A stretch of DNA of 32,000 bases from the NCBI GenBank assembly GCA_963699255.1, contig OY969425.1, forward strand, positions 240,001-272,000, in the 5' to 3' direction. Below, in pieces: positions 4,906 through 24,705 of the stretch (positions are counted from its first letter, which is position 1; each line of letters begins with the position of its first letter). Position numbers and translations under genes: made by a program. Source of the stretch: an uncultured bacterium (GTDB taxonomy: Bacteria > Margulisbacteria > WOR-1 > CAVSGV01). The notes under the pieces are model-generated. The model had not been told where the DNA came from. It searched no databases and saw nothing but the letters and a program-made list of their open reading frames with translations.

Positions 4906-5904
4906 ATGAAAAAGAAAAGAGCTTTATCTGGAATTCAGCCCTCCGGGAAGCTCCATCTCGGCAATCTTGTTGGAGCCATCTCAAACTGGGTCAAGCTTCA
5001 GGATAAGTACGACTGTTATTATTTTATCGCTGACATCCACGCGTTAACGACGGGCTATGCTGACACCGGCAGGTTGAAAGAGAATATCATGGATGTGGCC
5101 ATGGATATGCTCAGCTCGGGACTTGACCCTGAAAGATCAACGCTTTTCATACAATCGGACATCCCGGAACACAGCGAACTTCATCTCATGTTCTCTATGA
5201 TAACGCCGCTCTCATGGCTTGAAAGGATACCGACCTATAAATCCCAGATAGAGGAGCTTAAGGAAAAGGACCTGGGGACATACGGGTTTTTGGGCTACCC
5301 GGTCCTTCAGGCCGCGGATATATTGATATATAAATCTGATGTAGTACCGGTCGGACAGGACCAGCTGCCGCATCTGGAACTTACCAGGGAGATAGCGAGG
5401 AGGTTCAATCATTTTTATAAGGACGTTTTTCCTGTTCCCGCGGATCTCCTTACCGAAGCTCCCGTGCTGCCCGGACTTGACGGAAGAAAAATGAGCAAGA
5501 GCTACAATAATACTATCGCGATATCGGATCCTCCCGAGGCCATATTAAAGAAGATCAATGAGGCGGTGACCGATCCCGCCAGGGTAAAGAGGGAAGACAA
5601 GGGGCATCCGGATGTCTGCACAATATTCGCTTACCATAAGATATTCAATAAGGATGAAAGCAGACAGATACGCCTCGATTGTTCGAACGCGAAGATCGGC
5701 TGCGTTGAATGCAAAAAGATGATCGCCGGAAAACTTAGGGATTATCTTGCCCCGATATACGAGAAGAGGAAATCGCTGGAAAAAAGGAAAGAATACGTGA
5801 GGGAAGTGTTCGTTGAAGGCGGCAGAAAGGCCCAGGTGATCGCGAGGCAGACCCTTTCTGAGGCGAAAAAAGCGATGGGGATGTTATATGATGCCGACCG
5901 GTGA
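4906..5904 (+). CDS. trpS: Tryptophan--tRNA ligase
   Basis: Class I aaRS signatures GKLHLGN (HIGH-type) and KMSKS. About 330 aa and TrpRS-like throughout. Confidence 0.95.
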   Translation: MKKKRALSGIQPSGKLHLGNLVGAISNWVKLQDKYDCYYFIADIHALTTGYADTGRLKENIMDVAMDMLSSGLDPERSTLFIQSDIPEHSELHLMFSMITPLSWLERIPTYKSQIEELKEKDLGTYGFLGYPVLQAADILIYKSDVVPVGQDQLPHLELTREIARRFNHFYKDVFPVPADLLTEAPVLPGLDGRKMSKSYNNTIAISDPPEAILKKINEAVTDPARVKREDKGHPDVCTIFAYHKIFNKDESRQIRLDCSNAKIGCVECKKMIAGKLRDYLAPIYEKRKSLEKRKEYVREVFVEGGRKAQVIARQTLSEAKKAMGMLYDADR

Positions 5905-6646
5905 AGAAGATAGTACATTACTCGCTTCCTATAAGTTGAAGCTGGATGTGTTCGAGGGCCCCTTTGATCTGCTTTTGGCAATGATAGACAAAGGTGAGAT
6001 CGATCTGTTCAAGGTCTCATTGACCCAGATCACGTCCGGATTCATGGATTACATCAGGACAATGGAAAAGTATAACATCGTTATCGCCGGCGAATTCCTT
6101 TTGATGGCGGCGTATCTTCTGGAGATGAAATCCAGGATGCTGCTTCCAGAAGTTCCGTCGTCCCAGGAGGAAGAGGACCTGTTGAACGTGGAAGAGGAAC
6201 TTTTGCAGAGGCTTGCCGAGTACAAGCTGTACAAAGGACTTGCCAAGAGCCTGAAGGACCGCAAGGATGTGTTCCAGAAGGTTTATACGAGATATCAACC
6301 GGAAGAAGCGCTCGAAGACAGGGAGATATTTCTGGTGGAAGTATCGATGAAGGACCTTGTCGCGGCGTTTAAGCGGGTTTGGGACATGGCGGAGAGCAGG
6401 GAAAGGACCGATGAGATAGCCATGGAAGTTTTCTCGGTAAAAGAAATGATCTCTGCGATATTGGAAAAGATAAAAGGCAATCCCGAAGGGCTCCGTTTCG
6501 ACGCCCTGTTCGACAGGTACGTAAAAGCGGAAATAATAGTTACTTTTCTGGCGATACTGGAACTGATAAAGCAAAAGCTGATAAGGATACTTCAGAACGA
6601 CATGTTCGGTGAGATTTATATTTACACGACGGAGGCGGCAAAATAG
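5888..6646 (+). CDS. scpA: Segregation and condensation protein A (kleisin)
   Basis: N-terminal FEGPFDLLLAMI motif characteristic of ScpA. Followed directly by scpB. Confidence 0.85.
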   Translation: MMPTGEEDSTLLASYKLKLDVFEGPFDLLLAMIDKGEIDLFKVSLTQITSGFMDYIRTMEKYNIVIAGEFLLMAAYLLEMKSRMLLPEVPSSQEEEDLLNVEEELLQRLAEYKLYKGLAKSLKDRKDVFQKVYTRYQPEEALEDREIFLVEVSMKDLVAAFKRVWDMAESRERTDEIAMEVFSVKEMISAILEKIKGNPEGLRFDALFDRYVKAEIIVTFLAILELIKQKLIRILQNDMFGEIYIYTTEAAK

Positions 6647-7234
6647 TTGGAAAACGGCATTGAGATAAGTTATCCAAGATTAAAGAATATCCTGGAATCG
6701 CTGCTTTTCATCACAAAGAAACCGGTGACGCCGGAAGAGCTTCAGTCCGTCATAGGCGTTGACATAAAGCTTATCGAAAAAACGCTTTATGATCTTTTCG
6801 TGGAATACGAAAGCAGGGGAATGAACATAGTTAAGATAGCCGGCGGATACCACATGGTGACAAAACATGAAAATGTTGATTATGTCGACAGGCTTATCCA
6901 TTCTCCGATAGAGACCACGCTTTCTAACGCGGCGCTCGAGTCTCTTGCGATAATCGCTTATAAACAACCTATCACGAAGTTAACAATAGAAAATATTAGA
7001 GGAGTTAATTCGGACGGGGTCGTTGATACGCTGCTTGAGAAAAGGCTGATCAAGGAGGTCGGCAGAGGAGAGGGGCTGGGAAGACCCATCCTATACGGCA
7101 CGACCGTTGATTTCTTAAGGCATTTCGGGCTGAAGGACCTGAGCGATCTGCCTGCTTTGCCTAACGATGATGTCTCGGCGTTCAGAGAAGGATTGATCCT
7201 GCCCAAAGAGCAAACCCAAGGAGATGCCTTATGA
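6647..7234 (+). CDS. scpB: Segregation and condensation protein B
   Basis: TTG start immediately after the scpA stop. ILESLLFITKKPVT, GGYHMVTK and LETLAIIAYKQPIT-type motifs. Winged-helix tandem typical of ScpB. Confidence 0.85.
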   Translation: MENGIEISYPRLKNILESLLFITKKPVTPEELQSVIGVDIKLIEKTLYDLFVEYESRGMNIVKIAGGYHMVTKHENVDYVDRLIHSPIETTLSNAALESLAIIAYKQPITKLTIENIRGVNSDGVVDTLLEKRLIKEVGRGEGLGRPILYGTTVDFLRHFGLKDLSDLPALPNDDVSAFREGLILPKEQTQGDAL

Positions 7235-8070
7235 GCATAGGAAAGATATTACGGGAAAAAAGGGAGGAAAGGGGATTATCTGTTGCCGATGTTTTTGCGG
7301 AAATAAAGATAAATAAAAAATATATCCAGGCTCTGGAAGACGATAATTTTCTTCTTATACCCTCCCAGGTCTATGCGAAAGGTTTTTTGAAAGCTTATTC
7401 GGATTTTTTAGGTCTTGACACGAAAAACCTTGTTGGCGAACTGATAAATTATTATAAGAACAGGGAGGGTGAGAGAAAAACGATCTCATCAGCCAAAAAG
7501 ATGCCAAAGGTCATTTCTGTACCGGGCGTACCGAAGCTCCCGAAGATCATAGGTATCCCGGAACTTAAATTAAAGTTCAAATTTAACATGAAAATGGTGT
7601 ATATAGCTGTTATGTCTGTCCTGGCGCTTCTTGTCCTTTTCATATTGATATATGGTTTCATTTCATTCCACAAAAAGAGCGCGGTTTCGATCATGGTAAA
7701 TCCCCCCGCGGCCGGGAAAATTGAGAGACCCATGGTCGGGCCAAAAAAGCCCCCTGCAGTAAAAGCCCCGGCAGTAAAGGCTCCAGCTGTAACTGAAGAG
7801 AAAATGAACGAGGAAAGCTCGATCCCTGAAGGCAAAGTTGAAGTAAGGATCGATACGATAGGGCGGTCATGGATCTATGTCGCTTCCGGCACCAAAGTGC
7901 TATACAGTGAAACGCTCAATCCCGGGGCGAAACTAAGATTTGTCGGCAGGGAGATAACGGTGAAGGCGGGTAACGGCGGCGGCGTAAAAGTATATGTGAA
8001 CGGTATTTCCAAGGGGCTTATGGGAGAAGAAGGTGTGGCATCGGAAAAAACTTACAGGGCATCTGAGTGA
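7231..8070 (+). CDS. rodZ: RodZ-like cytoskeleton protein (XRE-type HTH, single TM, C-terminal DUF4115-like domain)
   Basis: N-terminal LREKREERGLSVADVFAEIKINKKYIQALE HTH, a central TM helix, a PAVKA repeat linker, and a C-terminal beta-rich domain ending in VKAGNGGGVKVYVNG. Confidence 0.7.
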   Translation: MSIGKILREKREERGLSVADVFAEIKINKKYIQALEDDNFLLIPSQVYAKGFLKAYSDFLGLDTKNLVGELINYYKNREGERKTISSAKKMPKVISVPGVPKLPKIIGIPELKLKFKFNMKMVYIAVMSVLALLVLFILIYGFISFHKKSAVSIMVNPPAAGKIERPMVGPKKPPAVKAPAVKAPAVTEEKMNEESSIPEGKVEVRIDTIGRSWIYVASGTKVLYSETLNPGAKLRFVGREITVKAGNGGGVKVYVNGISKGLMGEEGVASEKTYRASE

Positions 8071-8854
8071 GCACCACAGAAGCGCACATCTATGAGATCT
8101 TTTCCTCATTTCAAGGCGAAGGCCTCTACATAGGGGAACGGCAGATATTCATCAGATTTTTGATGTGCAACATGAGCTGCGCGTATTGCGACAGTCCGGA
8201 AAGCCTCACGCCCCAGAAAACGTTCAGGGTTGAAGAAACCCCCGGGAATAAAGATTTCAAGACATTCAACAATCCGGCGACAATAGATCAGATCTCCGGT
8301 TTTATCGATCAGCTAAAAGGGCAGAAAGGGCTTCATCACAGTGTTTCCATAACCGGAGGCGAGCCTCTTCTTCAGGTCGATTTTCTTAAGAATCTTCTCC
8401 CGAAGATCAAGGAAAAAGGCTTGAAAGCTTATCTTGAGACGAACGGCACCATGCCTGACAGGCTTTCTGAAATAATCGATCTTGTCGATATCGTGGCCAT
8501 GGATTTCAAGCTGCCGAGCATGACAGGGGAATCCGACAGGCTGCAGGAACACAAAAAAGCTCTCGAGGCGTCGACATCCCGCCTTCGCGAAGGCTTCGGC
8601 GGGCAGGCACAGATGTGTTCGTGAAGATCGTCATCGGAAAACAGACAAAGCCTGTTGAGATAGAGAACGCCTCAAAAGCCATATCGGAGGTAAACAGCGA
8701 GATACCGCTGGTGCTTCAGCCGGTCACGCCCGTAAGAGAAATAAAACACGGCCCCACCCCTGAGCAGATGTTTTCCTTTCACGCCATCGCCAAGAGGCAC
8801 TTGAACAGCGTGAGGGTCATTCCGCAGGTTCACAAGCTTCTCGGACAGCTCTGA
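8067..8854 (+). pseudogene. queE: 7-carboxy-7-deazaguanine synthase QueE (radical SAM), interrupted. N-terminal part 8067-8624 and C-terminal part from 8615 lie in different frames
   Basis: CNMSCAYC (CX3CX2C) and FQGEG motifs in part 1. Conserved QueE C-terminus VRVIPQVHKLLGQL in part 2. The frame changes across a 35-nt GC-rich segment. Confidence 0.8.
8577..8611 (+). other. 35-nt GC-rich palindromic insert (32-nt core plus repeated ACA) disrupting queE
   Basis: tcccgccttcgcgaaggcttcggcgggcaggc+aca. Perfect 14-nt palindrome 8581-8594, stem cccgcc/ggcggg. Flanked by ACA at 8574-8576 and 8609-8611. Removal restores ...EAST|DVFVKIV... Confidence 0.55.
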
Positions 8855-8872
8855 TGCAAACGTAAAATACGC

Positions 8873-8901
8873 TTGACTACGGGGCGGGGCGCTTTTAGAA
8901 T
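8873..8901 (+). promoter_or_regulatory. Candidate sigma70-type promoter for the small zinc-ribbon gene
   Basis: TTGACT (8873-8878), 17-nt spacer, TAGAAT (8896-8901). Confidence 0.5.
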
Positions 8902-8945
8902 ACACAGTAGAAACAGAGAATTATTAATTGACTAGGAGGTGAATT

Positions 8946-9095
8946 ATGGCAGAGGTAAAGGCTTATTGCGTAAAGTGCAAAAAGAAACAGACAATGGAAG
9001 GCGCGAAAGAAATAACCATGAAGAACAAGAGGAAAGCAATGACGGGGAAATGCCCCAAATGCGGCACAAAGATGTTCAGGATCGGTGGAATGTAA
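8946..9095 (+). CDS. Small zinc-ribbon protein, 49 aa (DUF5679-like): MAEVKAYCVKCKKKQTMEGAKEITMKNKRKAMTGKCPKCGTKMFRIGGM
   Basis: Not in the ORF track because it is under 60 aa. Perfect SD aggagg 7 nt upstream of the ATG. Two CxxC pairs (CVKC, CPKC). Own promoter and a strong terminator. The listed 69-aa ORF 8939-9148 is the wrong frame. Confidence 0.8.
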   Translation: MAEVKAYCVKCKKKQTMEGAKEITMKNKRKAMTGKCPKCGTKMFRIGGM

Positions 9096-9112
9096 ATAGA
9101 TTTTCGCTCAAT

Positions 9113-9159
9113 AAAGCTACCAAGTGGGTCATTTTTACCGCTTGGTAGCTTTTTCTTTT
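9113..9159 (+). terminator. Rho-independent terminator
   Basis: 12-bp stem aaagctaccaag / cttggtagcttt (9113-9124 / 9141-9152), running into ttttctttt. Confidence 0.8.
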
Positions 9160-9160
9160 G

Positions 9161-9249
9161 CCTCACCCCCGTCCCCTCTCCACTTTATGGAGAGGGGAGC
9201 TTAGTAAAAACTTTAGTAGATTATGATTCCAATAAACTTTGGGGTGAGG
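9161..9249. repeat. 89-nt element bounded by perfect 9-nt inverted repeats, with an internal 9-bp hairpin (MITE/REP-like)
   Basis: cctcacccc (9161-9169) pairs with ggggtgagg (9241-9249). Internal stem cccctctcc/ggagagggg (9173-9181 / 9189-9197) with loop actttat. Confidence 0.6.
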
Positions 9250-9265
9250 TATAATATCCAATATT

Positions 9266-10084
9266 ATGCCAGCGGATTTGCATATTCACTCAAACTTCTC
9301 AGACGGATTGTTATCCCCCGAAGAAATAGTAAGAAAGGCGCGAGATGCGGGGCTCACGGTCATAGCCATTACCGACCACGATACCGTCGACGGCATTGGC
9401 CCGGCTATCGCCGAAGGGGAAAAAATCGGGGTAAAGGTAATACCAGGCATAGAGTTCACGACCGATACGAAAGATAATGAGATACACGTACTCGGATATT
9501 ACATCGATTACAAGGCGCAGTGGTTGCGACAGCTCCTCCAGAAGATCCGGGAGGACCGTAAGAACAGGATATATAAGATAGTCGATAAGCTGAAAGAGCT
9601 TGGGGTGGACATAAACGCCCAGGAAGTGCTGGCGCTCGCAGAGAACGGGTCCGCCGGAAGGCCGCACGTGGCAAGGATGCTCATACAGAAGGGCATAGTT
9701 AAGAATATTCCGGAAGCTTTTAATAAATATCTTGTTCGCGGGGCTCCCGCTTACGTTCCTCACTTCAGGCTTAGTCCTGTGGAAGCGGTGCAGACCATCG
9801 TTAAAGCGGGGGGTATACCGGTTTATGCTCACCCGGCCGTTTCAAATTCTGACGAAATAATACCTGAACTCATGGCGAAAGGGTTGGCAGGGATCGAGGT
9901 TTATTACGGCAAAAATTCCGATGCTCAGGTGAAGCATTACCGCGCGCTTGCAGAAAAGTACGGGCTCCTTATGACAGGGGGCTCGGATTTTCACGGGTTC
10001 GGGACCGGGAGAGACGTTTCTCTGGGGGACGTGAATCTTCCCGACGACCGCATATTAGAACTGGAGGAGCATTTAAAAAAATGA
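9266..10084 (+). CDS. PHP-domain phosphoesterase (TrpH/YciV-like)
   Basis: N-terminal DLHIHSNFSDG and ITDHDT metal-binding motifs, C-terminal GGSDFHG. About 270 aa. Confidence 0.85.
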   Translation: MPADLHIHSNFSDGLLSPEEIVRKARDAGLTVIAITDHDTVDGIGPAIAEGEKIGVKVIPGIEFTTDTKDNEIHVLGYYIDYKAQWLRQLLQKIREDRKNRIYKIVDKLKELGVDINAQEVLALAENGSAGRPHVARMLIQKGIVKNIPEAFNKYLVRGAPAYVPHFRLSPVEAVQTIVKAGGIPVYAHPAVSNSDEIIPELMAKGLAGIEVYYGKNSDAQVKHYRALAEKYGLLMTGGSDFHGFGTGRDVSLGDVNLPDDRILELEEHLKK

Positions 10085-11205
10085 GGCCGGAAAATCAGAC
10101 ATTCGTTGAGATATGCGTTCCGAACATATTACATAATATAAGGCAGCTCAAAAAGCTTCTTGATCGGAACGTGAAATTTATGGCCGTCGTTAAGGCGGAT
10201 GCTTATGGACACGGGGCCGTGCCTGTTTCGAAGGCCATAGAGAAAAACGTGGATTATCTGGCGGTCGCGACGCTTTCTGAAGCCGTTGAATTAAAAAGAT
10301 CCGGGATCAAAAAGCCGATATTGCTCCTTGGTGAAACGCATCTGTCGAATGCGGAAGATGTCGTCAGGGACGGTTTCATCCAGACGGTGTATACCCTTCC
10401 TTTCGCGAAAGCGCTGTCGAACGCCGCAACCAGGTTAAAGAAGAAGACAAGAGTGCACCTGAAAATAGATACGGGAATGGGAAGGATAGGCGTTCATTTT
10501 GGGAAAGCCGACGACTTGTTTGAAAAGATTATGGAGCTTCCGAACATAGAAATTGAGGGTATTTTCACCCATTTTGCTGGGGCGGAGGAAATGGATGAAT
10601 TCACATCCGAACAGCTGAAAAGGTTCAGGTCGTTCATTTCAAGGATCGATTCCGCCGGGTATATTTTGCATGCCGCGAACAGCGCAGCGACCCTTTTCCA
10701 CAAGGAAAGCCATCTTGATATGGTCAGGGTCGGGCTTTCCATGTACGGGCTCTATCCTCCCGGGGGGCGCGGTCACGCTATCAAGCTGAGACCGGCTCTT
10801 GAATTTAAGACCCGTGTCATATATATGAAGAGGATCCCCGCCGGGACCCCGTTAAGTTACGGGTCTACATATGTTGCGGGAAAAGAAACGAACATTGCGA
10901 CGCTGCCTGTCGGTTACGCGGACGGGCTTCCGAGAGCGCTGTCAAATAAAGGGGAAGTTTTGATAGGGGGAAAGCGGCATCCGATAGTCGGGAGGATATG
11001 CATGGACATGACGCTGGTCGATGTGGGCAATTCAAAAGTAAACCCCAACAATTCTGTTGGGGTAAAAGTGGGAGACGAGGTTGTTTTGATAGGGCGTCAG
11101 GGAAAAGAGATCATTTCAGCGGATGAAGTGGCCCAACTGGCTGATACAATAAGCTACGAGATAATTTGCGGAATAGGGAAAAGGGTCACAAGAATATATG
11201 TTTGA
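10081..11205 (+). CDS. alr: Alanine racemase
   Basis: PLP-lysine motif AVVKADAYGHG, C-terminal beta domain with PVGYADG and GRICMD motifs. ATGA overlap with the upstream gene. Confidence 0.9.
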   Translation: MRPENQTFVEICVPNILHNIRQLKKLLDRNVKFMAVVKADAYGHGAVPVSKAIEKNVDYLAVATLSEAVELKRSGIKKPILLLGETHLSNAEDVVRDGFIQTVYTLPFAKALSNAATRLKKKTRVHLKIDTGMGRIGVHFGKADDLFEKIMELPNIEIEGIFTHFAGAEEMDEFTSEQLKRFRSFISRIDSAGYILHAANSAATLFHKESHLDMVRVGLSMYGLYPPGGRGHAIKLRPALEFKTRVIYMKRIPAGTPLSYGSTYVAGKETNIATLPVGYADGLPRALSNKGEVLIGGKRHPIVGRICMDMTLVDVGNSKVNPNNSVGVKVGDEVVLIGRQGKEIISADEVAQLADTISYEIICGIGKRVTRIYV

Positions 11206-11237: not shown

Positions 11238-12734
11238 TTATATTTCGTCGTTCCCGCCCAGTTGTCTTTCAAGACGTAACGTGTGCCTCATTGCCCAGTC
11301 TTGTAATGCCTGAACAGTCTTGCCCGATTTCTTATATTCTTTTCCGCGTTGAATGTATATAGGCTCCGGTGTGGAGCTTTTTCCGATTGCCGTGGTGTAA
11401 TCTTTGACCGCATTTTCGTGCTCGTGCATTTTACTGTATACATCCCCGCGCATGCAATAGTAGGATTCGATATCTTTAGGGTTATTATTGATCGCATCTG
11501 TAAAAGCTGTGATAGCCGAGTTGAAGTCCTCGTTAGCTTTTGCCTTACAAGCATCTTTATCCGCTTTTTCCGTTGCATATTCGATCGAATCCTTTAAGGC
11601 GCTTCCGCGAGCGCTGTATGCTAATCCGATAGCATAATATAGCCGTGGATTATCAGGAGATGAGCGTAGCGCCTCTTTATAATTGTCTATTGCAGCATTA
11701 AAATCATTCAATGCCAAGTCATGTTCTTCCTTTCCCCATTTACCCCATTCTATCTTCGAGGCTTTTTCATGTGACCTGCCGGAGAGATAGTATACATTGG
11801 CGAGTTCCAGATATGCGGATGACGGGACCGGAGTGCTCTTGCTATTGATCAGGATGTTGAAATCTTTGATCGCCAGGTCCTTGTAGAGAGCTTTTTTATC
11901 CTGGTCGATTGCATTTTGCATTAATTTCGTGTATGCATAGCCGCGGTTTTGGAGAGCTGTTATCTGGTCAAGGGTTAATTTGTTTGGATCCGAGATAGGC
12001 GAATTCTCGAGCAATATGTTGGCATTGTCCACTGCCAAAAGGTAATGATCATTGCCCTCCAGTTTATTAAGTGCTTTCGCCTGGTTATTGAGATACTCCG
12101 GGCGGTTACCGCCATATTGGATCGCACGGTTATAGCTGTTTATTGCCGAGTTCAACTGATTCGTGCTTAATTTGCCGCTTCCATGCGTACGATGCATTTC
12201 ATAAGCATCTCTATTAGCTTCCCCTAAGGCCTTATACGCATTTCCGCGATAATACCAGGCATCCGCAAGGGCTTTCGAAGTGTCATCATTAAGATCTTTC
12301 GCTGATTCGGGGTCATTTTTTACCTGCTCATTTTTTTTCAACATATTGAATTTGATCGCCACATCCAGGTCCTTGATCGCCTTTTCATATTCATTTAATT
12401 TATACTGAGCAAGACCACGATTATAGTAGGCATCTGCATAGTTAGGGTTTAATTTAAGCGCACTGGTAAAATCTTTGACCGCCGCTTCATATTCACCTAA
12501 TTGATAGTGTGCAAGCCCGCGAACCACGTAGTCAGATGCAACAAAGTTAGACTTCGCAAAATCGTCCGGTATTTGAGCTGTTTTTTGTGGGTCTATATTC
12601 GGATCGACATTAATATTGACGTGGTCATCTGTGTCGAGCTTCTGCTCTATAAGCACATGTTTAGTAGAAGGCGTCATTTTTTTGTACCACGGAGAAACGC
12701 CGTTAGAATTGTTGCCTACACCGGACACCGACAT
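11238..12734 (-). CDS. Tetratricopeptide (TPR) repeat protein, 498 aa, function unknown
   Basis: Repeated A..YY.RG.AY..LG.Y..AI.D...AI..NP units along the whole protein. Strong SD aggagggg upstream. It is the only minus-strand gene in its neighbourhood. Confidence 0.8.
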   Translation of the reverse strand: MSVSGVGNNSNGVSPWYKKMTPSTKHVLIEQKLDTDDHVNINVDPNIDPQKTAQIPDDFAKSNFVASDYVVRGLAHYQLGEYEAAVKDFTSALKLNPNYADAYYNRGLAQYKLNEYEKAIKDLDVAIKFNMLKKNEQVKNDPESAKDLNDDTSKALADAWYYRGNAYKALGEANRDAYEMHRTHGSGKLSTNQLNSAINSYNRAIQYGGNRPEYLNNQAKALNKLEGNDHYLLAVDNANILLENSPISDPNKLTLDQITALQNRGYAYTKLMQNAIDQDKKALYKDLAIKDFNILINSKSTPVPSSAYLELANVYYLSGRSHEKASKIEWGKWGKEEHDLALNDFNAAIDNYKEALRSSPDNPRLYYAIGLAYSARGSALKDSIEYATEKADKDACKAKANEDFNSAITAFTDAINNNPKDIESYYCMRGDVYSKMHEHENAVKDYTTAIGKSSTPEPIYIQRGKEYKKSGKTVQALQDWAMRHTLRLERQLGGNDEI

Positions 12735-16427: not shown

Positions 16428-17009
16428 TTGTCAAAGAAGGATATTGTTGAAATAAGATGGCACGGAAGGGGAGGTCAGGGCGCAAAGACCGCGGCGCTTC
16501 TTTTCGCGGATGCCGCCCTCTCCGAGGGAAAGTGTATACAGGCCTTTCCGGAATACGGTCCCGAGAGGATGGGTGCTCCGGTCCAGTCTTTCAACAGACT
16601 GTCCGATGAGCCGATAACGCTCCACTGCGCTATCAGCAATCCCATGTATGTTGTTGTCCTTGACCCGACGCTTATGGCTTCGGTTGACGTTCTCGCGGGC
16701 GTTCCGGATGACGGAAAGATAATCATCAACACGAGCAAGTCGCCGGAAGAGATCAGGGATGTCTTAAAGAACAAAAAGATCAAAATTTTCACTGTTGACG
16801 CTTCAAAAATAGCCATGGATACCATCGGCCGCAACATCCCTAACACTCCAATGCTTGGCGCAATGGCGAAGGCGACGGGGCTTCTTGATTTTGCAAGATT
16901 GATGAAGGACCTTGAGCAGAAGCTTAAAAAGAAATTCGCCTCAAAACAGGAAGTTATCGCGGGTAACCTGAACGCCGTAAAAAAGGCTTATGAAGAGGTC
17001 AGGTCGTAA
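16428..17009 (+). CDS. porC: 2-oxoacid (pyruvate-type):ferredoxin oxidoreductase gamma subunit
   Basis: SD aaggagg 5 nt before the TTG at 16428. N-terminus IRWHGRGGQGAKTAA is typical of gamma subunits. The longer track ORF (from 16275) overlaps the previous gene and is rejected. Confidence 0.85.
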   Translation: MSKKDIVEIRWHGRGGQGAKTAALLFADAALSEGKCIQAFPEYGPERMGAPVQSFNRLSDEPITLHCAISNPMYVVVLDPTLMASVDVLAGVPDDGKIIINTSKSPEEIRDVLKNKKIKIFTVDASKIAMDTIGRNIPNTPMLGAMAKATGLLDFARLMKDLEQKLKKKFASKQEVIAGNLNAVKKAYEEVRS

Positions 17010-17010
17010 A

Positions 17011-17307
17011 ATGGCTAAACTGATGAACTGGAAGGAAATGAAAAAAGGCGATGTGCTGGAAGCAGGCACCGCGGAACAATTTGAGACGGGGGACTGGAGA
17101 AGTTCCCGTCCGGTCTGGCATCCCGATATATGCATCCAGTGCCTTTTTTGCTGGATCCATTGTCCCGACTCTTCGGTTACCGTTGACAAGGCAACATCAA
17201 AAATGACGGGATTCGATTACAAACACTGCAAAGGCTGCGGGATATGCGCGCAGGTTTGTCCCGTAAAGCCGAATAAGGCGATCACCATGGAAAATGAGGC
17301 GAAATAA
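17011..17307 (+). CDS. porD: 2-oxoacid:ferredoxin oxidoreductase delta subunit (2x[4Fe-4S] ferredoxin)
   Basis: Two cluster motifs, CIQCLFCWIHCP and CKGCGICAQVCP. The ATG is 1 nt after the porC stop. Confidence 0.85.
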   Translation: MAKLMNWKEMKKGDVLEAGTAEQFETGDWRSSRPVWHPDICIQCLFCWIHCPDSSVTVDKATSKMTGFDYKHCKGCGICAQVCPVKPNKAITMENEAK

Positions 17308-17308
17308 T

Positions 17309-18490
17309 ATGGCAATAGTTGCGAAAACGGGGAATGAAGCTATGGCGGAGGCGCTGCGTCAGATCAATCCTGATGTCGTCGCGGCATATCCGATAACTCC
17401 CGCCACTGAAATAGCGATGATATTCGCGCAGTTCGTAGCCGACGGTGATGTTGACACGGAATTTGTTGCCGTGGAATCAGAGCATTCCGCTATGAGCGCG
17501 ACCCTGGGTGCGGCTGCTGCCGGGGTGAGGGCGATGACGGCCACATCTTCACAGGGACTCGCATTAATGTATGAAATACTGCCGATCGCATCCGCGCTGA
17601 GACTTCCGATAGTCATGCCGGAGGTGAACAGAACGATATCAGGCCCGATCAACATTCACTGCGACCACAGCGATACGATGGCGGCCAAGGATTTCGGCTG
17701 GCTACATATCTTTTCAGAGAACGCGCAGGAAGCGTACGACAATATCCTTCAGGCGGTAAAGATCGCCGAGGATGCAAGGGTAAGGCTTCCCGCAATGGTC
17801 ACCACGGACGGGTTCATAATAAGCCACTGCATGGAACAGATCGAAACGATCGATGACGACAAGGCAAAAGCTTATATCGGAGAATACAAGCCGGAGTATT
17901 CGGTCCTCGATATTAATAATCCCATATCGGTCGGATCGCTTGATCTCCAGGACTATTACTTTGAGCATAAGTACGCGGTGGCCCAAGCCATGAGAGCGGC
18001 AAAAGACGTTATTCTAGAAGTCGGCAGGGATTTCAGCAAGAGGTTCGGCAGGCCGTATGGCTTGTTCGAGGAGTACAGATTAGATGATGCGGACATCGCG
18101 ATCGTTGCGCTTGGTTCGACCGCTGGAACGGCAAAAGCCGTCGTTGACAGTCTAAGGGACAGGAACGTAAAAGCGGGGCTTCTTAAACCTCGCGTTTTCA
18201 GGCCGTTCCCTTACGCTGAGATGGCGAACGCGCTTTCTAAGGTAAAGGCGGTCGCGGTCTTTGACAGAAGCGATTCCTTAAGTTCTGCGGGAGGGCCTCT
18301 GTTCACCGAGATAAGGTCGGCGCTCTATGATTCCGCGGTCAGGCCTAAGCTTGTCAATTATATATACGGCCTGGGCGGAAGGGATATTTCAAAGGAAGAG
18401 ATCGAAGGCGTGTATCATGAACTTGAAGAGATAGTCAAAACAGGGAACATCAAGAACGCATATAAATATTTAGGAGTGAGGGGTCTGTAA
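17309..18490 (+). CDS. porA: 2-oxoacid:ferredoxin oxidoreductase alpha subunit
   Basis: N-terminus GNEAMAEA...AAYPITPATEI and about 390 aa, typical of PorA/VorA. The ATG is 1 nt after the porD stop. Confidence 0.9.
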   Translation: MAIVAKTGNEAMAEALRQINPDVVAAYPITPATEIAMIFAQFVADGDVDTEFVAVESEHSAMSATLGAAAAGVRAMTATSSQGLALMYEILPIASALRLPIVMPEVNRTISGPINIHCDHSDTMAAKDFGWLHIFSENAQEAYDNILQAVKIAEDARVRLPAMVTTDGFIISHCMEQIETIDDDKAKAYIGEYKPEYSVLDINNPISVGSLDLQDYYFEHKYAVAQAMRAAKDVILEVGRDFSKRFGRPYGLFEEYRLDDADIAIVALGSTAGTAKAVVDSLRDRNVKAGLLKPRVFRPFPYAEMANALSKVKAVAVFDRSDSLSSAGGPLFTEIRSALYDSAVRPKLVNYIYGLGGRDISKEEIEGVYHELEEIVKTGNIKNAYKYLGVRGL

Positions 18491-24144: not shown

Positions 24145-24705
24145 TTGATAAATCAAAATAAAATAGAAAAAGCGATGAAAATGATACTTGAGGCGATCGG
24201 GGAGGATCCTAGACGTTCTGGCATCAGGGAAACCCCGGCCAGGGTCGCGAGGATGTATGCCGAACTTTTTTCCGGGTTACATAAGGATCCCGGAAAGGAA
24301 CTTAATGTTTTCCAAGAGGCGGATCACGAGGAAATGATAATAGTAAAGAACATACCTTTTTACTCCATGTGCGAGCATCATTTTGTGCCTTTTGTCGGTA
24401 AAGCTCACATCGTTTACATCCCCACAAAGGGCAGGGTCACTGGACTTTCGAAGCTGGTAAGGACTATCGAGGGCTTTGCCAAGCGTCCTCAGGTACAGGA
24501 GAGGCTTACAAGCCAGATCGCCGACACGCTGATGAACATTCTTAAGCCAAGGGGAGTGTTCGTGGTAATAGAGGCTGAACACCTCTGCATGTCAATGAGA
24601 GGGGTCAAGAAGCCGGGTTCGATCACCGTTACATCCGCGGTGAGAGGGATATTCAGGAAAAATCCCACTACAAAAGCCGAGGCACTTGCGCTCATAAAGA
24701 CTTAA
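24145..24705 (+). CDS. folE: GTP cyclohydrolase I (FolE type I)
   Basis: SD ggaggg 6 nt before the TTG start. [10 protein letters not shown], the zinc-site motif [10 protein letters not shown] and [12 protein letters not shown] motifs. Confidence 0.95.

Follow-up and report, generated by a model that had tools for sequence, protein, structure and literature searches.

A dispersed hairpin of about 30 nt inserted in a QueE-family gene of an uncultured Margulisbacteria genome, a probable REP-type disruption

Repetitive extragenic palindromes (REPs) of the RAYT type are defined by a GT[AG]G tetranucleotide located 0-2 nt 5' of the hairpin foot and by a size of 21-65 nt, and have been described as species-specific. 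The CGTC-tagged REPs (Di Nocera et al. 2013, PMC3733652), which include Rickettsia RPE-4/6 and Neisseria dRS3, have no known dedicated transposase and have been reported to insert into pre-existing palindromes and open reading frames (ORFs); their four families have stems of 8-9 bp that start with A/T pairs, loops of 4-5 nt, and CCA tails (PMC3733652). Here, we describe a GC-rich hairpin of about 30 nt that interrupts a gene of the QueE family of radical-SAM enzymes in an uncultured Margulisbacteria bacterium. It lies in a stretch of 32,000 nt that was analyzed as a whole (hereafter the window; GenBank assembly GCA_963699255.1, contig OY969425.1, positions 240,001 to 272,000, forward strand). 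The hairpin, at window positions 8578-8607, is probably one copy of a REP-type stem-loop, the insertion of which would have led to a recent loss of function of the gene.

The element resembles REPs and REPINs in its size (about 30 nt, in a 21-65 nt range), in being an imperfect palindrome that is rich in GC, as is its basal stem (here an outer stem of 6 GC pairs), in having a conserved tetranucleotide at the hairpin foot, and in the location of its copies, which mostly lie just downstream of genes, with some in frame in gene loops or linkers and many inside palindromes. It differs from them in its foot tags, which are CYTG or CGTC/TGTC and not GT[AG]G, and in its distribution, being a singleton in the scanned GTDB genomes, with a core identical across phyla and multiple copies only in some metagenome organisms; additionally, no Y1 transposase (RAYT) was found within the 32-kb window. 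The CGTC-tagged REPs have an unpaired CGTC (or TGTC or CCTC) at one end of the stem-loop; among the copies here, CGTC stands directly at the stem foot in one class (from ERZ1066133 and QLAH01) and TGTC in another (L010, L016, and L021), whereas the tag of the window copy is CCTG, and a 6-bp GC-only stem around a 14-nt palindrome, followed by a CARG tail, replaces the stem and tail of the four CGTC families. As these groups have been described, the element belongs neither to the RAYT-type REPs nor to the four CGTC families, though it is REP-like in behavior.

Three other systems offer partial parallels. Rickettsia RPE-1 is palindromic selfish DNA that also sits in frame inside protein-coding genes and is translated, but it is 100-150 bp long and is found only in Rickettsia. 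The cyanobacterial small dispersed repeats (SDR), which Elhai and colleagues are said to have described in 2008, reportedly consist of mobile hairpin units of 21-27 nt nested in other repeats and genes, and reportedly are high-copy within the Nostocaceae and of a sequence other than that of the hairpin here. Finally, T4 gene 60, the Magnusiomyces mitochondrial byps, and the yeast mitochondrial GC clusters have in common with this locus a short GC-rich hairpin in coding sequence, matched flanking codons, and UUCG tetraloop motifs. However, the signals that define bypassing are missing here, and in other hosts the element, with a length divisible by three, is read through.

The insertion in the QueE-family gene

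The gene is broken into two ORFs in different frames. The upstream ORF encodes 185 amino acids (aa), contains the CNMSCAYC cluster motif, and ends in an out-of-frame tail, STSRLREGFGGQAQMCS. The ORF of the other frame, which carries the C-terminal part, spans 8615 to 8854; gene callers start this C-fragment at a GTG at 8621 (P0123, 77 aa), and the NCBI/ENA record of the source, a contig of 1.77 Mb, annotates the two halves as separate proteins of 150 and 77 aa. The best models in an NCBIfam search were those of QueE, at 73 bits, a score that does not reach the QueE equivalog cut-offs (200-300). Nevertheless, a profile of 21 orthologues aligned end to end with Bacillus subtilis QueE (5TGS; positions 8-249, E = 3e-13), and the PQxH motif in the C-fragment (PQVHK here) aligned to its counterpart in that protein. 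On the cluster motif and this full-length similarity, the assignment to the QueE family holds, with the clade being a divergent, QueE-like group from Margulisbacteria/Saganbacteria-type genomes for which the function is predicted.

Both ORFs and their frames, the palindrome, the competing stem, the contrast in base composition (75% GC in the 32-nt block 8577-8608, against 49% in the gene and 47.5% in the window), and the ACA codons that bracket the block were all found where the original prediction, made from the letters of the DNA, had placed them. Moreover, the 35-nt deletion that it proposed does restore the frame, yielding a single open frame of 250 aa.

Comparison with orthologues, however, showed a different junction. 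The block is missing from 20 of the 20 aligned orthologues, all of which are two residues longer than the product of the 35-nt deletion, with the gap located exactly at the junction in the 21-sequence alignment (e.g., ALEAS-TSK-DVFVK in P0001); the closest relatives, with identities of up to 93%, have 252 aa as opposed to 250 aa. At the DNA level, the intact orthologue L001 reads GTCAACATC-AAAG-GATGTG where the window reads GTCGACATC-[C CGCC...CAGGC ACA]-GATGTG, so that the net gain is 29 nt and a few target bases were replaced. The alignment with a second relative, L003, shows a clean 29-nt block at 8578. Depending on the alignment, the 29 extra nt are placed at 8578-8606 or 8580-8608, and excision of the latter gives ALEASTSTDVFVK, which has the orthologous length. 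Of the proposed tiny REP-like insertion with a 3-bp duplication, the insertion thus remains the best-supported reading, while the duplicated ACA and the 35-nt length are not supported, the net gain being 29 nt. Because orthologue length and DNA alignment both give a net insertion of 29 nt and not 35, the ACA/ACA bracket is probably a chance match; of simulated random insertions of the unit into genes of this genome, 11-21% yielded a matched codon pair no more than 2-3 codons away on both sides.

The L003 sequence, a WOOD18-1 scaffold, was also considered as a second split QueE and rejected, the break there being a run of N at a scaffold gap (8073-8082). Separately, the POR alpha neighbor on that scaffold (16729-17917) is called as two overlapping pieces of 184 and 231 aa, perhaps from a frameshift or an assembly error.

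It is not the palindrome itself that sets the block apart from chance, but its absence from every orthologue together with the recurrence of an exact 23-mer in 32 other contigs. The folding energy of the hairpin, which contains UUCG motifs, is -14.4 kcal/mol and is unexceptional for its composition (z = -1.1). The lack of a stop codon in any of the six frames was rejected as a designed property, as 49% of shuffled sequences have it too.

The empty site in L001 is itself a small hairpin, ACATC-AAAG-GATGT, and in the window the insert takes the place of its loop. Across 22 distinct contexts of the element, the mean length of the stem formed by complementary flanks was 3.7 nt, versus 3.2 nt for permuted flanks (P about 0.01), and flank stems of at least 6 nt were present in 14% of these contexts versus 2% of the permuted ones. 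Such complementarity agrees with the presence of the hairpin at the apex of longer palindromes, described below, and with published REPs that lie inside palindromes.

In an AlphaFold model (pLDDT 89), the junction is in a loop (residues 168-171) between helix 159-167 and strand 172-178, and the sequence of this loop varies among orthologues. Three further barrel strands and the conserved C-terminal motif reside in the C-fragment according to the model and the profile, and for this reason the N-fragment alone is not a complete enzyme. Decay was evident in neither half: relative to L001, the N-half had a dN/dS of 0.057 and the C-half one of 0.073, with values of 0.04-0.11 for neighboring genes. 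Judged by these rates, either the gene still works or it was broken long after the divergence from L001 (dS about 0.4).

In the course of events that we propose, the hairpin would have landed in the loop of the pre-existing ACATC-AAAG-GATGT hairpin, at a site where a surface loop of the protein joins a helix to a beta-strand, and replaced a few target bases. Since it added a net 29 nt, where in-frame copies elsewhere add 30, the frame would have been broken, leaving two ORFs of 185 aa and 77-79 aa; most likely, this copy of the gene has recently lost its function. The unit may have been mobilized as a hairpin in single-stranded DNA, either through template switching or by an enzyme supplied in trans.

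Copies of the hairpin in other genomes

The exact 23-mer, GCCTTCGCGAAGGCTTCGGCGGG, was identified in six GTDB species representatives, from Lentisphaeria, Ignavibacteria, Horticoccus, Flavobacteriales, Peribacteria, and Brocadiia, with the Horticoccus copy coming from a RefSeq isolate genome. A further 26 metagenome contigs carry it, making 32 other contigs in all. By our estimate, chance would supply about 0.02 matches to a 23-mer in 596 Gb, or up to about 0.4 for GC-rich DNA. The original prediction had proposed a search for the core in the rest of the genome or metagenome; further copies were recovered in other contigs, and none elsewhere in the window. The flanks of the copies are unrelated to each other, and conservation reaches [C]CCGCC...GGCGGGCARG, about 26-30 nt. 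The tetranucleotide at the foot is also conserved, as CGTC or TGTC in the multi-copy classes and as CYTG in solitary copies.

The hairpin occurs in three settings, namely as a solitary copy (the setting of the window copy), at the center of a repeat of about 150 nt, and at the apex of longer palindromes. The repeat of about 150 nt is dispersed or tandem and was present in at least 8 contigs of ERZ1066133 and in 2 QLAH01 contigs (L011, L015, L017, L024, L025, L027, L029, L031, L034, and L035; partly tandem in L017), with the layout …GGGAGCGGGTGGGGCG…GGAGGTCC-[hairpin]-ACGAGGTCAGCGCTTCC…GTCGGCGGCTACGG. In the palindrome setting, L010, L016, and L021 show compensatory changes in their flanks. Additionally, L013 (oriented) has two long palindromes of about 170 nt, at roughly 1770-1960 and 7750-7940, that resemble miniature inverted-repeat transposable elements; these have the terminal inverted repeats CCGATTGTCGG...CCGACAATCGG and a hairpin at each apex, one being exact and the other diverged (CCAGCCTTCGCCAAGACTTCGGCGGG). 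Several copies were located 3-100 nt past stop codons, and others upstream of genes.

Some individual loci had features of their own. In L012, around 410-460, a solitary copy appears as a 29-nt insert between 9-nt direct repeats (CAATTTCCC), the only case resembling a target-site duplication, with none in the other copies. In the Peribacteria contig L008 (4384-4530), 52 nt separate the hairpin from a tRNA gene that follows it on the same strand, and in L024 a match to a group II intron domain (625-739; RF00029, 45 bits) lies about 640 nt from a copy. The candidate second split gene in L009 was rejected, as its long overlapping ORFs are frame artefacts of high GC content and the copy lies between fliN and fliO. 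Searches of Rfam with the window and 26 loci returned no family for the element at gathering or permissive thresholds, the viral contig collection held no match to the 23-mer, and matches among PLSDB plasmids were partial only and at chance level. Neither the element sequence nor the run accession turned up in full-text searches of the literature.

Two copies within other genes were verified against homologues. In L005, an Ignavibacteria contig of 36% GC, the unit is in reverse orientation and adds 10 residues (…FRLP-AEAFAKAGIA-DRGFV…) to a sorting domain of the type IX secretion system (T9SS) in comparison to nine homologues. In the Planctomycetota-like phosphodiesterase of L014, PAEAFAKAG and one further residue are missing from the 90%-identical P0245 and from nine others, while P0246, a 99%-identical protein from another project, carries the same 10-residue insertion. 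Nucleotide alignment of the filled alleles L014 and L038 with the empty L037, a 90% orthologue, gave a difference of exactly 30 nt. The filled allele comes from two independent projects, one of JGI and one of ENA, with 1% divergence, and the insertion is inherited. PDB homologues were too distant for judging the L014 insertion, and close orthologues were used instead. A further unit, in L026, lies within a DUF6597 domain exceeding its profile by about 14 residues. From their reading frames, the 30-nt copies are predicted to be translated, being read through as 10 extra residues. Because in-gene copies occur in MEGAHIT short-read assemblies, from which the L014, L037, and L038 evidence derives, sequencing platform or assembler cannot account for the element.

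Alternative readings of the interrupted gene

Although we favor a REP-type insertion with recent loss of function, several observations weigh against it. The window contains no further copy, whether up to 3 mismatches were allowed, the stem pattern was used, or k-mers of at least 12 were compared. Classical REPs are high-copy, whereas a single exact copy is present in each of the six GTDB genomes. Neither in the window nor in the collected loci was a RAYT or another candidate mobilizing enzyme recognized. A core that is identical across distant phyla, mostly in singletons, is without precedent in the REP literature consulted, in which REPs are described as species-specific. Moreover, both verified in-gene copies are 30 nt long, so the 29 nt here might be a consensus error of 1 nt, and the lack of decay in either half fits a functional gene as well. 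One bolder possibility, which we put forward tentatively, is that the hairpin represents a mobile unit of very small size and of a kind not described before, the core of which stays invariant as the unit spreads, or arises anew time and again, across bacterial phyla; it would target the loops of DNA hairpins, including coding ones, where 30-nt copies stay as translated insertions of 10 residues, and the QueE case would be an off-by-one landing.

The most serious rival is that the true insertion is 30 nt and in frame, the 29-nt state being a single-base deletion in the consensus, so that QueE would be an unbroken protein with 10 residues inserted into a surface loop. We consider this unlikely, but several lines of evidence point to it: the exact 30 nt (10 aa) of both verified in-gene copies, the absence of decay, the variable sequence of the loop among orthologues, and the single contig of 1.77 Mb, which suggests a long-read assembly. 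Deletions of 1 nt are a typical error of such assemblies. In contrast, a separately built Logan assembly of run ERR10755942 (L002) is identical to window positions 5691-10636, including the 29-nt state, though it may derive from the same reads. In the coding sequence that was aligned to relatives, about 17 kb, no indel other than the insert breaks a frame. As the 23-nt core is letter-perfect, an error would have to fall at the edges of the element. By exact look-up in a collection of 15 billion proteins, none of 8 hypothetical in-frame alleles was present; the element-free versions, with 29 or 35 nt removed, were likewise both absent from it.

The gene might also work as two polypeptides, with the C-fragment translated by coupling at a GTGA and reassembling with the N-fragment. 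The GTGA at 8621-8624, in which the start codon of one overlaps the stop codon of the other, could indeed couple translation of the two, the break falls within a surface loop, both halves are conserved, and split enzymes that arose by insertion of a mobile element are known in T4-like phages. Yet with its start at 8621 the C-fragment would miss DVFV, half of strand 172-178, the N-fragment bears a short out-of-frame tail, a strong Shine-Dalgarno sequence is not present, and 0 of the orthologues are split, which together render this arrangement improbable.

Programmed bypassing as in T4 gene 60, which the original prediction had raised, is a good deal harder to sustain. Here, peptidyl-tRNA(Thr) would take off at the ACA at 8574-8576 and land at that at 8609-8611, skipping 35 nt and producing a QueE of 250 aa. 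The ACA codons do match and the frame is restored, a stable GC-rich hairpin with UUCG motifs begins 2 nt past the take-off codon, and the gene is without decay. However, the product would be two residues shorter than all orthologues, and the codon match is at the chance level noted above (11-21%). The defining signals are missing as well: as had been remarked, no stop codon follows the take-off codon directly, the next codon being TCC, which is not rare but the commonest Ser codon (14.8 per 1000 codons), and the first in-frame stop being 46 nt downstream. Moreover, the take-off codon is outside the stem, which starts at 8578; the sequence ahead of the landing site (GGCGGGCAGGC) is GC-rich and not AU-rich with a Shine-Dalgarno motif; and the upstream peptide is ordinary QueE sequence that is common to insert-free orthologues, with no dedicated nascent-peptide extension. 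In other genes the element is 30 nt and read in frame, as translation and not bypassing predicts.

That the whole insert is an assembly or library artefact, another explanation proposed initially, is effectively excluded, with only an error of 1 nt being possible. An identical sequence in unrelated metagenome-assembled genomes, at a single copy per genome, and the availability of an isolate genome for only one match would suit an artefact. Against this, the correct gene sequence on both sides demands real junction-spanning molecules, the two assemblies agree at the window locus, the unit was verified in other genes from independent Illumina/MEGAHIT projects, the filled allele of L014 and L038 was inherited with 1% divergence in JGI and ENA projects, in-gene copies keep the frame, multi-copy families include diverged copies, and one copy is in a RefSeq isolate. 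Lastly, -1 ribosomal frameshifting or +1 transcriptional slippage at the A6 run (8553-8558), giving a 262-aa protein, is the least credible reading: the required shift is indeed -1 and AAAAAA lies 20 nt upstream of a stable hairpin, but C AAA AAA G does not make a canonical X XXY YYZ heptamer in this frame, about 19 nt lie between it and the hairpin where 5-9 nt are required, the intact orthologue has the same A6 run, the conserved ALEAS segment would be replaced, and the insert contains no slippery site.

With insertion and recent loss of function as the preferred reading, an attractive candidate for recoding becomes a probable recent gene disruption, and matched flanking codons prove to argue weakly for bypassing. 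Of more interest than the break in QueE is the element family. In-frame insertion was verified in unrelated proteins, a T9SS tail and a phosphodiesterase, and the filled and empty sites at nucleotide resolution make for a tractable system in which to study REP-like DNA movement. If the unit is truly mobile, it would extend the REP/RPE phenomenon to a smaller unit and a wider taxonomic range, and would give rise to loop insertions of 10 residues and, now and then, to frameshifts. It would then be among the smallest mobile DNAs known and, to our knowledge, the first REP-like family unchanged between phyla as distant as Margulisbacteria-like bacteria, Ignavibacteria, the candidate phyla radiation (CPR), and Planctomycetota.

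Coordinates and further features of the window

Features of the interrupted gene and the inserted element are collected in Table 1.

Table 1. Positions, in the 32,000-nt window, of the QueE-family ORFs, the hairpin element, and the associated motifs.
Feature	Positions	Strand	Basis
N-terminal ORF: QueE-family radical-SAM core (residues 1-170) and short out-of-frame tail through the insert	8067..8624	+	Translation, profiles, orthologue alignment
A6 run (no other stretch upstream of the insert is prone to slippage); also in the intact orthologue, no dedicated signal	8553..8558	+	
ACATC, left arm of the target hairpin; includes the ACA "take-off" codon 8574-8576	8574..8578	+	L001 alignment
Hairpin element of about 30 nt, CCCGCCTTCGCGAAGGCTTCGGCGGGCAGG	8578..8607	+	Insertion relative to L001 and L003; unit found in 32 other contigs
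Outer stem, 5' arm CCCGCC, pairing with 8598-8603	8578..8583	+	Folding
Invariant 23-nt core, query of the collection scans; contains the perfect 14-nt palindrome 8581-8594	8581..8603	+	
Outer stem, 3' arm GGCGGG	8598..8603	+	Folding
ACA "landing" codon 8609-8611, then GATGT 8612-8616, right arm of the target hairpin	8609..8616	+	
C-terminal QueE part (DVFVKIVIG...VRVIPQVHKLLGQL), -1 frame relative to the N-terminal part	8612..8854	+	Translation, orthologue alignment, model
GTGA, C-fragment start codon overlapping N-fragment stop codon	8621..8624	+	Read from the sequence

The neighborhood of the QueE-like gene is conserved (rodZ-like / DUF5679 / PHP / alr), with neither queC nor queD adjacent, and an intact FolE is encoded in the window at 24145-24705. 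The least conserved stretch of the block that is syntenic with L001 is at 11238-12734 (minus strand), where the window has one tetratricopeptide repeat (TPR) protein of 498 aa, versus two genes without Pfam domains (411 and 434 aa) at L001 13003-15555.

Finally, a second insertion relative to L001 is located at 9164-9222 (context 9155-9225). It is 59 nt long and intergenic, and comprises another GC-rich hairpin, CCCCTCTCC-ACTTTAT-GGAGAGGGG, with CCTCACCCCC ahead of it. Rfam gave sub-threshold matches only for this insertion (ctRNA_p42d at 26 bits, threshold 50), and replicons of Cupriavidus and Pseudanabaena carry several copies of partial relatives (E 0.003-0.01). Hairpin repeats of more than one kind that are shared across phyla may therefore have entered the source genome.

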